A stretch of DNA of 64,000 bases from Escherichia coli (GTDB taxonomy: Bacteria; Pseudomonadota; Gammaproteobacteria; Enterobacterales; Enterobacteriaceae): NCBI RefSeq assembly GCF_001677475.2, contig NZ_CP012498.1, one strand, 5' to 3'. Positions within the stretch are counted from its first letter, which is position 1, and each line of letters opens with the position of its first letter. The position numbers are program-made. This document shows, piece by piece, positions 43,001-46,000 of this stretch.

Positions 43001-46000
43001 TCAATGGTCTTTACAAAGCGGAGGTAATACACCGTAAGAGCTGGGAAAACCGGACAGAAGTGGAGCTGGCCACACTCACGTGGGTGGACTGGTATAACAA
43101 TCGACTATTGCTGGAAAGTCTGGGCCATATCCCTCCGTCAGAAGCAGAAAAAGCTTATTATGCTTCCATCGGAAATGATGAGCTGGCAGCCTGAGTTCAC
43201 AGATAAAACACTCTCCAGGAAAACCGGGGCGGTTCATTCTGAACGCATCGGTGTTTGTTCAGCAGAGTATCAGGCGCTGCTGAAGCGGCATAATCTGTGT
43301 GGCAGTATGAGCACAAAGGGCTGCTGCTACGATAATGCCTGCGTGGAGATATTCTTCTTTCTTTGAAAGTAGAATATCTCCACAGAGAATACTTTATCAG
43401 CCGGGAAATAATGTGGGAAACTGTATTCAATTATATCGAATGTGATCACAATTGGTGGCGACGGCACAGTTGGTATAGCGATCTCAGTTTGGGATAATTT
43501 GAAAATCAGAACCTAGATTAGGCCCGTGTAAATATTATTTTGGTTGATTAAAGATAGTTTCTTTACTATAAAGTAGTGGTTATTATTATGCGACTACTAC
43601 ATATTGTAATACAGCAGTAAGCAGCTTTTACTGACAGGGGATTACTGAAATGTATCATGAACATGACTAAGGATTCCTACATTAGAGCATGCGAAACTAA
43701 ATGAGATAAAAAGATTACATTAAAATAATAATACAAGTGTTTTCTTTATTGAAGTAACAGGCATAAGTAGGTCAGAACAATGGATTAAGAAAATGGATAA
43801 AAACTTTATATTAAATCTTTCTATAAACACTACTAATCCTAAAAATAATAAAGAGTTTCTTTGGCTTAGTTATAGCATGAATAATTTGAGTTCGGTAAAA
43901 TATGAGAGGCCATACTGGATGACTCTGGAAAAAAGATGCCTGTCTTTATTCATGGAAAACGGATATGACCTTCAGACAGGTGTATGGTTTTGTCTTATTT
44001 CTACCCATCTATATGGCTGGGAAGGTCTGGCTATTTCTTCATGGAAATTTGCTGATTCTTTTGTTAAACAAAAAAAATGTTGGCCTCCTGTCACTGACGC
44101 GCATATACGAACTAAAATTCTTTTATGGTATATTAAAAATATTGTTCCTATGATACAAAGTTTGCCTAATGATGAACAGACTTATTCTTCTCTAACGTTA
44201 CTGGAAGATTCGTTAATATTATTGGCAGAACTTGAGTATAATCTTCTTTCAGGTGAAAGAACTATTATTTCTGAAATGCTACATGAAGTAAAAAGACAAA
44301 AAAATGGTAACTATGAAAAGAGTGATGATTATTTCATGGAGGAGAGCAGGCATGAGGGTTTAAATGAGACTTCAGGACATGTGTGTTATAATTCAACACA
44401 GAGATACAAAAAAACATGCATATATTATAACATAATTGCTTTTATATCTGGAGCTTTAGTAACGATTTTTATAAATTATTTAGGGAAGCCGCAAACAGCT
44501 CTAAAGATCAGGAGTATTATGCCTGATAGCTTTCTTTCTGAAATAGTAATGAATTATTCAGGGTGTTCTGAATACACTCCTGATTCAACAGATTACTGGA
44601 CTAAACTAAGTAAAAAAATTGATGGCTTTGCAGAAGAATTAAATACAATTGAAAATAATGGGGGGTATATTACTATATCTAGACTGAAAACAATAGCTTA
44701 TGATATGAAAAAAAATTTCCTTGAGTATGATACTCCTGTGAATGTAAGAATGTCAAATTTATATAATAATGTGTACATTGATAAAAAGGATATAAAAAGA
44801 GAACTTGAAATAATAGAATACAATGTTAATAAATTTAATTGTCAGATTAGTGAATTAAAACTGAAAAATGAAAGTTGATTAAAAGATAAAATAAGGTAAT
44901 GGTTTCTCTATGCATGTTAAAAAAAGAGTGAGGAGTAGAATTGTAGTGGTGCGGATTCTTAATTATTTATGGTATATATAAAATTCATAACAAAAATCAT
45001 CATCGCAGGAGACTGCTATGTTAATGAAGCACTGTGGGTAGACATGATCAGGGAAAGTATAGCTGTATTAGACATACATGTTTAGGAAACCGATGCGGTT
45101 TATTTATTTTTAAATGAATAATAATTATACTGTAAAATTCCAATGAATTCAAAACATTTAATATGTTATGACGGAGACCATCTCTTTATGTTTACAAGAA
45201 ATCACCCTCATCGTAAACCATTTAATTCCAGAAACTCCAGATTTTCTGAAAAAGCAACTGACCAATCCCTGTCCAGTGAAGATTTTGGTAACACTCATTC
45301 TCCGGTTCTGTGGGCAAGTCGATATCAGCACTTGGATATGTGGCCAGCCACGGCACATATGATGGCTATTCTCGGTATCCACCCTGAGACCTACCTGGTT
45401 CGTATAACTTCACTTGAATATGTGAATTACGGGAGGATGCTAATATCCGGTCATACCCATACGGTGGCAAAAATTGAGGATCCTTATGATTTGAAACCCC
45501 ACCCGTTTTTACCTGGACTGATGCTTCCCACAATAAAACCGTCTCAGAGGCTGGGGCTTGAATGTCTCAATGTAGTGTATACAAATTCGAGGATATCCTT
45601 GCTGAAAGCTAAAGCGATGGTTTCTGGGTATAGAAAAACTCAGAGTGATATAGTGGTTTGCTTTCAGATAAAAGATGTTCTTTCTGTGAATGGTAAAATA
45701 TATAGAGATGCATCCTCTTCTCTTGAAAATGCTCTTATAGTTGGGCTGCCTGTAGGGTCACATATTCCTTTTCGAATAATTTGAAAGTAAAATCATAACA
45801 AAATATAAATATTTCCATTGTGTTTTTATTATGATTGCTGTATTAAGGACGTAAAATGAAGTGGGATAATGTTTATGTTTTAACTTTTCAATCAGAAGAT
45901 GATTTATCATGGAAAACTGCTTTTTCTTTATGTCTTCGCTATGATATACCACTTGAGAGAATAGCTGTTTTTCAGAAAAAAAACATACTGGAGAAAGACA

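Follow-up and report, generated by a model that had tools for sequence, protein, structure and literature searches.

We analysed a 64,000-nucleotide stretch of Escherichia coli DNA (the window; contig NZ_CP012498.1 of RefSeq assembly GCF_001677475.2) which carries a type VI secretion system (T6SS) cluster and, beyond the tssH gene of this cluster, an open reading frame (ORF) related to the T6SS accessory gene tagA. Positions 43793..44878 of the + strand hold an intact ORF of 361 amino acids (aa) with an ATG start at 43793, the first possible one following an in-frame TAA. The original prediction, made from the sequence alone, had placed a TssA-like ImpA_N protein with a membrane helix at this position, and the sequence blocks it quoted are present in the ORF. 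Frameshifts and stops are absent, its 361 aa fall inside the family range of 357–384 aa, and dN/dS values of 0.18–0.28 against orthologues indicate purifying selection. The gene and its parts are as follows.

43793..44878, + strand: tagA-like gene, 361 aa, predicted compact TagA or class B TssA-like accessory protein (ORF, Pfam, hhalign, dN/dS and the Prokaryotic Genome Annotation Pipeline, PGAP)
43738..43792, + strand: last native upstream DNA of the tagA-like gene, with a weak GGA Shine–Dalgarno-like element (blastn against loci L003 and L002 and enteroaggregative E. coli (EAEC) 042)
43793-44323, + strand: confident helical domain of the AlphaFold2 (AF2) model, aa 1–177 (predicted local distance difference test, pLDDT, 84–93)
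43835..44128, + strand: ImpA_N domain, aa 15–112 (Pfam PF06812; BLASTP to the cluster TssA and to EAEC TagA)
44312..44416, + strand: low-complexity linker, predicted to be disordered, aa ~174–208 (pLDDT <50; alignment gaps)
44417..44485, + strand: predicted hydrophobic membrane-anchor helix, aa 209–231, CIYYNIIAFISGALVTIFINYLG, with the family motif F-x-x-G (Kyte–Doolittle; positional conservation)
44582..44851, + strand: VasL domain, aa 264–353, with the family signature Y-I-T-I-S-x-L-K-T at aa 292–300 (Pfam PF12486; alignment)

Pfam matches to ImpA_N (aa 15–112, E = 1.1e-5) and VasL (aa 264–353, E = 5.2e-8) account for the two ends of the protein. The proposed parallel between its N-terminus and the ImpA_N region of the cluster's own TssA (window 30127-31203) was thus significant at the profile level, and BLASTP recovered it directly (31% identity over aa 39–98, E = 1e-6). 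A 19-residue Kyte–Doolittle scan gave one peak, of 2.04 at aa 209–227, with values >1.4 over aa 207–233 and never >1.1 in the rest of the protein; the peak falls within CIYYNIIAFISGALVTIFINYLG (aa 209–231), with RYKK just before it. This hydrophobic segment, which the original prediction had described as unlike TssA, is kept in position by the family: 149 of the 170 members of at least 300 aa have one with a Kyte–Doolittle value of ≥1.6 at relative position 0.5–0.6. F217 and G220 of the helix motif F-x-x-G are invariant in the relatives' alignment (A2), as are E287, T294, S296 and K299 of the VasL region among Enterobacterales relatives, and the linker of the ORF is 15–20 aa shorter than in the closest non-identical orthologues. 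On near-identical plasmids, PGAP names the product ‘type VI secretion system ImpA family N-terminal domain-containing protein’ (WP_000359998.1); RefSeq already labels the protein by its domains, and it is uncharacterised. The 90%-identity cluster to which it belongs contains 197 member sequences.

TagA is defined in the literature by ImpA_N, a transmembrane region and VasL (PMC6745524). All three are found in the ORF: an N-terminal ImpA_N, with a family profile which aligns from TagA residue 2, a central hydrophobic region given by the single Kyte–Doolittle peak, and a C-terminal VasL (PF12486), whose YITISxLKT motif is common with YMTVSELKT of EAEC TagA. The gene is also T6SS-linked, with homologues directly after tssH or tssM in all nine contexts examined. 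The reported association of TagA with a long, VasJ-type TssA, which comes from surveys and is not part of the definition, does not hold here.

A k-mer-limited search retrieved 57 relatives, nearly all with both Pfam domains, while an exhaustive representative search retrieved 189 at E ≤ 1e-3, falling into two size classes. Proteins of the short class (350–380 aa) match the ORF end to end, and those of the long class (420–480 aa) match it in two stretches, N-terminal and C-terminal. Using hhalign, we compared the short-class profile with an alignment of 20 long-class TagA proteins headed by EAEC TagA, which has been characterised experimentally (EC042_4550; 455-aa ORF, L004:24071-25438), and obtained a match with a probability of 100% (E = 3.7e-38) over 357 columns, spanning residues 2–460. 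The single large difference between the classes was that the short one lacks ~90 residues from between helix and VasL core. The two have in common the hydrophobic segment, often starting F-x-x-G, the blocks G-Y-D-L-Q-T-G-x-W and C-W-P at the N-terminal end, and the block Y-x-T-[IV]-S-E-L-K-T at the C-terminal end. Pairwise BLASTP of the ORF against EAEC TagA likewise matched the N-terminus (E = 3e-8) and the VasL core (E = 2e-5). On these profile and domain matches, which agree with the predicted resemblance to TagA/VasL-type proteins, we classify the ORF product as an intact, compact TagA-family (‘class B TssA-like’) protein of three-part architecture, homologous over its full length to characterised TagA.

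Assignment as a core TssA was rejected: the ORF scored 18.2 bits against a TIGR03362 cutoff of 230.1, had no match to TIGR03363, and its C-terminal half is VasL, not a TssA C-terminal domain (CTD). When 100,044 species-representative genomes were scanned by means of the family alignment, no locus was confirmed, both peptide patterns used being too Escherichia-specific, and the taxonomic range given here was taken from cluster member names and exact-sequence contig look-ups.

The features surrounding the tagA-like gene, including the debris of insertion sequences (IS) which sets it apart from tssH, are listed here.

21717..41724, + strand: Aai/Sci-2-type T6SS core cluster, all core genes full length (ORFs; NCBIfam; tblastn collinearity)
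30127..31203, + strand: short-form cluster tssA, 358 aa, whose product presumably pairs with the TagA-like protein (Pfam, TIGR03363, PDB)
39193..41724, + strand: tssH/clpV, directly 5′ of the tagA-like gene in undisrupted relatives (84% aa identity to EAEC 042 Sci-2 TssH)
41956..43737, no strand assigned: IS debris between tssH and the tagA-like gene (NCBIfam IS3 matches; PGAP pseudogene labels; blastn limits)

The cluster runs tssB-tssC-hcp(aaiC-like)-tssE-tssF-tssG-vgrG-DUF6931-PAAR-tssA-tssJ-tssK-[IS]-tssL-tssM-tssH, and all 15 genes are collinear with the Sci-2 cluster of EAEC 042 (aaiA-P, Ec042-4562-4577; 4893076-4911443 by tblastn) at 62–96% aa identity. Together with Hcp, the ORF (62–63% identity) is the most diverged of the 16 genes compared. 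Gene order and identity place the window cluster in the Aai/Sci-2 type; the EAEC 042 region used for comparison holds Sci-1 as well. Plasmid-borne systems of this kind in enterotoxigenic E. coli have been typed as i4b (PMC10761095); we apply this label to the window cluster from that report and by elimination among the three E. coli subclasses, not from phylogeny. The window region is 98–99.4% identical to large plasmids (167–242 kb) which cattle, food and human isolates of E. coli and Escherichia sp. carry; among them is pCFSAN004179G, with an ST-I enterotoxin gene as well. The GC content is mosaic (0.53–0.62 in window 1-8000, 0.29–0.42 across the T6SS and its neighbours at 20000-46000, and ~0.50 in IS patches), and by this the T6SS island stands out clearly as foreign to the remainder of the replicon. 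Within the cluster, tssK and tssL are separated by a second IS scar (window 33134-35163; ORFs 33651-34442 and 34253-34666); it is of IS110/IS3 type according to the annotation of a related plasmid, and the 13 core genes are still full length relative to EAEC 042.

Comparison with related loci indicated that the tagA-like gene was part of this cluster from the start, as had been suspected. On IS-free E. coli plasmids (L002 and L003), an orthologue 67–71% identical lies 650–690 bp 3′ of tssH on the same strand; on a contig of E. coli, where identity is 42%, its start is 20 bp beyond tssH; in L012 it overlaps the upstream gene by 14 bp; and in Yersinia enterocolitica (L015), Buttiauxella (L016) and Erwinia (L017) its start overlaps the tssH stop by 4–8 bp. 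The gene directly follows tssH in L002, L003, L008/9, L012, L015, L016 and L017, and directly follows tssM in a variant cluster without tssH (L010/L011). The tight spacing and overlap in distant relatives show that the ancestral state was a translationally coupled, terminal operon gene. Thus, the tagA-like gene is the original last gene of the plasmid's T6SS cluster, displaced by IS debris with its ORF undamaged. The published limits of the EAEC 042 Sci-2 T6SS (Ec042-4562-4577, aaiA-P) end at tssH (PMC2808357), and so exclude the orthologue of that strain. Of 5,426 complete E. coli genomes, 100 carry the tagA-like gene (96 when coverage of ≥80% is required), on chromosomes and plasmids in roughly equal shares, and 157 carry this tssA type (102 at ≥80% coverage); at comparable stringency, the two genes are close to one-to-one in E. 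coli. In the variant cluster (E. coli contigs L010/L011; genes 6244-9669 and 10001-11074), there is no tssH/clpV between tssM and the tagA-like gene, and a bundlin/PilS-type pilin gene lies ~2.3 kb 3′ of the latter.

From the end of tssH (41724) to the start of the tagA-like gene there are 2068 bp. Blastn against the IS-free relatives showed native DNA to ~41955 and again from ~43738, leaving ~1.8 kb of foreign sequence; homology with L003, L002 and EAEC 042 begins at 43738-43756. The original prediction had described ~2 kb of IS21/IS3 fragments here. Both the size of the gap and the IS3 component were confirmed, the latter by NCBIfam matches to IS3-family transposase fragments at 42988-43191 and 43160-43363. 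For the IS21/Mu fragment the only source is PGAP, which labels it ‘Mu transposase domain-containing protein’ on a plasmid of 99% identity, and no NCBIfam IS21 model matched the short ORFs of the debris, so that the IS21 label stays second-hand.

The original prediction had also missed the VasL domain, the Aai/Sci-2 type of the cluster and the short form of its TssA. The cluster TssA (358 aa) matches Pfam ImpA_N at E = 2.8e-29 and VasJ only at E = 0.018, with no VasJ domain, and scores 227.6 bits against a TIGR03363 cutoff of 160.85. Its halves match the Burkholderia cenocepacia TssA structures 6HS5 (E = 8e-16) and 6H8F (E = 1.6e-12), the C-terminus corresponding to the small CTD of the B. cenocepacia kind. 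In every related cluster examined, the partner TssA was likewise of 350–357 aa with ImpA_N only. A compact TagA paired with a short TssA (350–358 aa) is therefore common to every cluster examined, consistently over Escherichia, Yersinia, Buttiauxella and Erwinia. According to the survey of 100 clusters by Bernal et al. 2021 (PMC7896307), the pairing of TagA with a short TssA does not occur. Sci-2 is absent from that survey because its group 3–5 sheets hold no E. coli cluster. In the searchable literature, an incomplete set, we found neither a TagA for Sci-2/i4b nor a short TssA–TagA pairing.

Among named systems, TagA of the EAEC Sci-1 cluster (EC042_4550; Santin et al. 2018, as cited by later papers) has the same order of ImpA_N, hydrophobic helix and VasL as the window protein, and both have the G-[VY]-[DE]-L-Q-T..W, CWP/WP, F-x-x-G and Y-x-T-[IV]-S-E-L-K-T motifs. 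Like the window gene, it is T6SS-linked and lies outside the core operon. The two differ in size (455 against 361 aa, at ~24% identity) and in partner: the TssA with which EAEC TagA works, in a group-2/i2 cluster, is long (532 aa, with a VasJ CTD), whereas the partner here is the short TssA of a Sci-2/i4b-type cluster. RefSeq/PGAP splits the uninterrupted EAEC TagA ORF (L004:24071-25438; NC_017626 4884070-4885437) into three ‘incomplete’ pseudogenes, one of them labelled POTRA domain-containing, which looks like an annotation artefact.

The true orthologue in EAEC 042 is the Sci-2 ‘VasL domain-containing protein’ WP_000359994.1 (EC042_RS24460), 63% identical over the full length. It is encoded on the chromosome (pheU island), 4.2 kb 3′ of Sci-2 tssH and behind IS3/IS fragments, some of which are related to those of the window; at 384 aa it is longer both in the linker and in the C-terminal tail, and it too is uncharacterised. 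V. cholerae TagA/VasL (VCA0121; Schneider et al. 2019) is also of this Pfam family pair, with a hydrophobic domain, and is an accessory, not essential, factor which restricts polymerisation of the sheath and keeps its distal end anchored (PMC6745524). It is distant, with 19% identity even to EAEC TagA (PMC6745524) and a long TssA partner, and our likening of the two goes by description only. TssA proteins, both short (TIGR03363) and long (TIGR03362), have the ImpA_N (Nt1) fold in common with the ORF but have neither the membrane helix nor VasL. TagB and TagJ (Bernal et al. 2021) are also accessory and are the proposed sheath stabilisers of short-TssA systems; these ~30-kDa, cytoplasmic, baseplate-associated proteins, pentapeptide-repeat or ImpE-like, are unrelated to the ORF, and no TagB- or TagJ-like gene was found among the ORFs called at 20610-41724.

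We used AF2 to generate a model of the ORF product on the basis of 16 homologues, in which aa 1–177 were predicted with confidence and aa 174–213 were disordered. The top Foldseek match in the PDB was the ImpA_N domain of B. cenocepacia TssA (6HS5), which at E = 0.1 was not significant; the remaining matches were generic helical repeats, and a PDB sequence search with the family profile returned nothing at E ≤ 1. A rough Hessa-scale estimate of +0.5 kcal/mol for membrane insertion of the helix ignored position dependence. EAEC TagA is said to be cytosolic but tightly membrane-associated. A periplasmic disulfide between Cys258 and Cys350 was considered as a clue to topology and rejected as one of general value, since the relatives from Buttiauxella and Erwinia lack the pair.

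In EAEC and V. cholerae, TagA localises to the membrane, meets the TssA-capped distal end of the sheath, stops its polymerisation and holds it extended; mutants form over-long, bent or sliding sheaths and are less efficient, with secretion kept (PMC6745524, PMC6450956, PMC7545191). V. cholerae TagA binds through its N-terminus (PMC7545191), and EAEC TagA recruits TssA even when TssA is truncated of its CTD (PMC6450956), which makes capture of a short TssA through the conserved N-terminal domain plausible. Inferred by homology, the most likely function of the window protein would be to stop and clamp the sheath at its distal, TssA-capped end from an anchor in the membrane. As in these two systems, it would reside in the inner membrane, stop sheath polymerisation and keep the extended sheath until firing, its presumed partner being the short TssA in place of the long VasJ-type TssA. 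Stopping and holding the sheath in this way would improve firing efficiency, and secretion would not depend on it. In keeping with an accessory role, aaiA-P alone were enough for E. coli HB101 to secrete AaiC, according to what PMC6730261 relates of Dudley 2006. Overall, we judge it fairly probable that the compact TagA is an accessory terminal gene product of the Aai/Sci-2 (T6SS-i4b) cluster, here on a large E. coli virulence plasmid, and acts as a distal-sheath clamp.

Several points weigh against such a clamp. By homology to B. cenocepacia, the cluster TssA belongs to a different structural class from the classical partner, with a large, 32-mer-type ring, and the model published for the short-TssA class has TagB/TagJ stabilise the baseplate instead of an anchor at the distal end (PMC7896307). 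The ~90 residues missing from the compact form belong to classical TagA, and identity of the ORF to characterised TagA proteins is low, at ~24% in the N-terminus. In the AF2 model, the hydrophobic segment is helical with a pLDDT <50, and the all-helical C-terminal half reaches only 60–78. Furthermore, only ~55 bp of native upstream DNA are left 5′ of the gene, and promoter-like matches were close to chance (20 against 18.1 expected from shuffles, no excess), a scan that is uninformative on expression. These last observations would also fit a silent relic, in which IS elements have cut off an intact ORF from the T6SS operon, leaving it with no useful level of expression and no contribution to the system, as would the ~1.8 kb of debris after tssH, the second scar between tssK and tssL, and an extra IS630 inserted just 5′ of the gene in related plasmids. 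We consider a relic unlikely, given an undisrupted ORF of family length, 13 intact core T6SS genes, and the recurrence of the IS-scarred layout with an intact gene in EAEC 042 and 18 near-identical plasmids. IS fragments often provide outward promoters, and no strong + strand terminator was found in a scan from tssH to the tagA-like gene, so that read-through from tssH is possible.

The loss of the ~90 residues, which come from the C-terminal half of classical TagA, together with the report that short-TssA systems fire at once, without distal anchoring (PMC7896307), could instead point to a TagA homologue with another job: a chaperone of membrane-complex or baseplate assembly, or a competitor of short TssA that regulates initiation. 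V. cholerae TagA is also transiently present at initiation sites and, binding TssE/F/L/M, Hcp and VgrG, has been termed a promiscuous chaperone (PMC6745524, PMC7545191). However, both roles are compatible in V. cholerae, and the clamp proteins have the same conserved parts (ImpA_N, anchor helix and VasL core motif), making an alternative job, in our view, a rather improbable one. A further possibility concerns topology. In 165 family members, lysine and arginine are enriched on the N-side of the helix relative to the C-side (4.06 versus 2.63 for short-class and 3.0 versus 1.28 for long-class proteins), which favours an N-in orientation, and a single span, for which the ~20–23 residues of the helix are enough, would then place VasL in the periplasm. 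Such a bitopic, N-in/C-out protein might tie the cytoplasmic end of the sheath to the envelope or act as a sensor of the periplasm, and the Cys258/Cys350 pair is invariant within the Escherichia/Yersinia branch. Yet the flanks of the window protein itself are neutral (three K/R on either side) and the cysteine pair is missing from Buttiauxella and Erwinia. Moreover, a C-terminal mNeonGreen fusion of V. cholerae TagA is fluorescent and functional at the membrane and its C-terminal fragment binds a TssA C-terminal fragment (PMC6745524, PMC7545191); the fusion and these cytoplasmic interactions argue for a cytoplasmic C-terminus and contradict a periplasmic VasL, which we regard as highly improbable.

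Genes flanking the T6SS island were also examined. Just 3′ of the tagA-like gene, window 45143-45784 (+ strand) encodes a 213-aa protein which has the ADP-ribosyltransferase fold of AvrPphF/HopF, with matches to Pfam PF09143 (E = 3.5e-8) and to the EspJ family of NCBIfam (E = 3.7e-7). Plasmid NZ_CP010192 has a copy with 72% identity close to its own tagA-like gene (L003:14489-14911); the annotation is that of a type III effector, but the protein travels with a T6SS and may be T6SS cargo. The next ORF (45856-46464, + strand; 202 aa) has no Pfam or NCBIfam match, and a cluster variant has an orthologue of 68% identity two genes beyond its tagA-like gene (L010:12598-13200); it is a conserved protein of Sci-2-type islands. 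At the other end, 5′ of tssB, window 20610-21179 (+ strand) encodes a 189-aa protein with the N-terminus MIIYFFPF and the motif YI[FV]AHGN. Members of this family occur elsewhere 3′ of tssH or the tagA-like gene, including in EAEC 042, at 44–75% identity (L002:16658-17224, L005:6615-7181, L009:11193-11795 and L003:15769-16347). Its sole match, to Peptidase_C80, is weak (E = 0.18), and it may be a His/Cys-type effector or accessory gene. A different 189-aa gene, with IcsB_M (PF27349), stands beside the tagA-like gene in Yersinia enterocolitica (L015:11427-11996), L006:3563-4132 and L010:16203-16772, and is unrelated to the 189-aa ORF of the window by BLASTP.

Returning to the clamp, TagA is, to our knowledge, the only known terminator and anchor of T6SS sheath growth. 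Current models tie it to long TssA, while here a conserved, translationally coupled TagA occurs in a short-TssA lineage which includes the AggR-regulated Aai system of EAEC and O104:H4. We tentatively extend the proposal, as a serious possibility, to compact TagAs as dedicated distal-end anchors of the Enterobacterales Aai/Sci-2 T6SS lineage with its short, large-ring TssA. If this is true, the dichotomy between a long TssA–TagA clamp and a short TssA–TagB/J collar would not be general, distal anchoring would be set by conserved Nt1/ImpA_N contacts and not by the type of TssA ring, and the ~270 conserved residues (ImpA_N, helix and VasL core) would constitute a minimal TagA. Otherwise, the gene is an expected accessory gene in this window, with the short-TssA pairing as a modest surprise. 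The compact TagA would offer a natural minimal TagA for structure–function work and a direct test of whether TssA length sets the mode of stabilisation. These findings extend the limits of the Aai/Sci-2 cluster by one gene past aaiP/tssH, to a gene which published definitions exclude and which is often hidden by IS elements.

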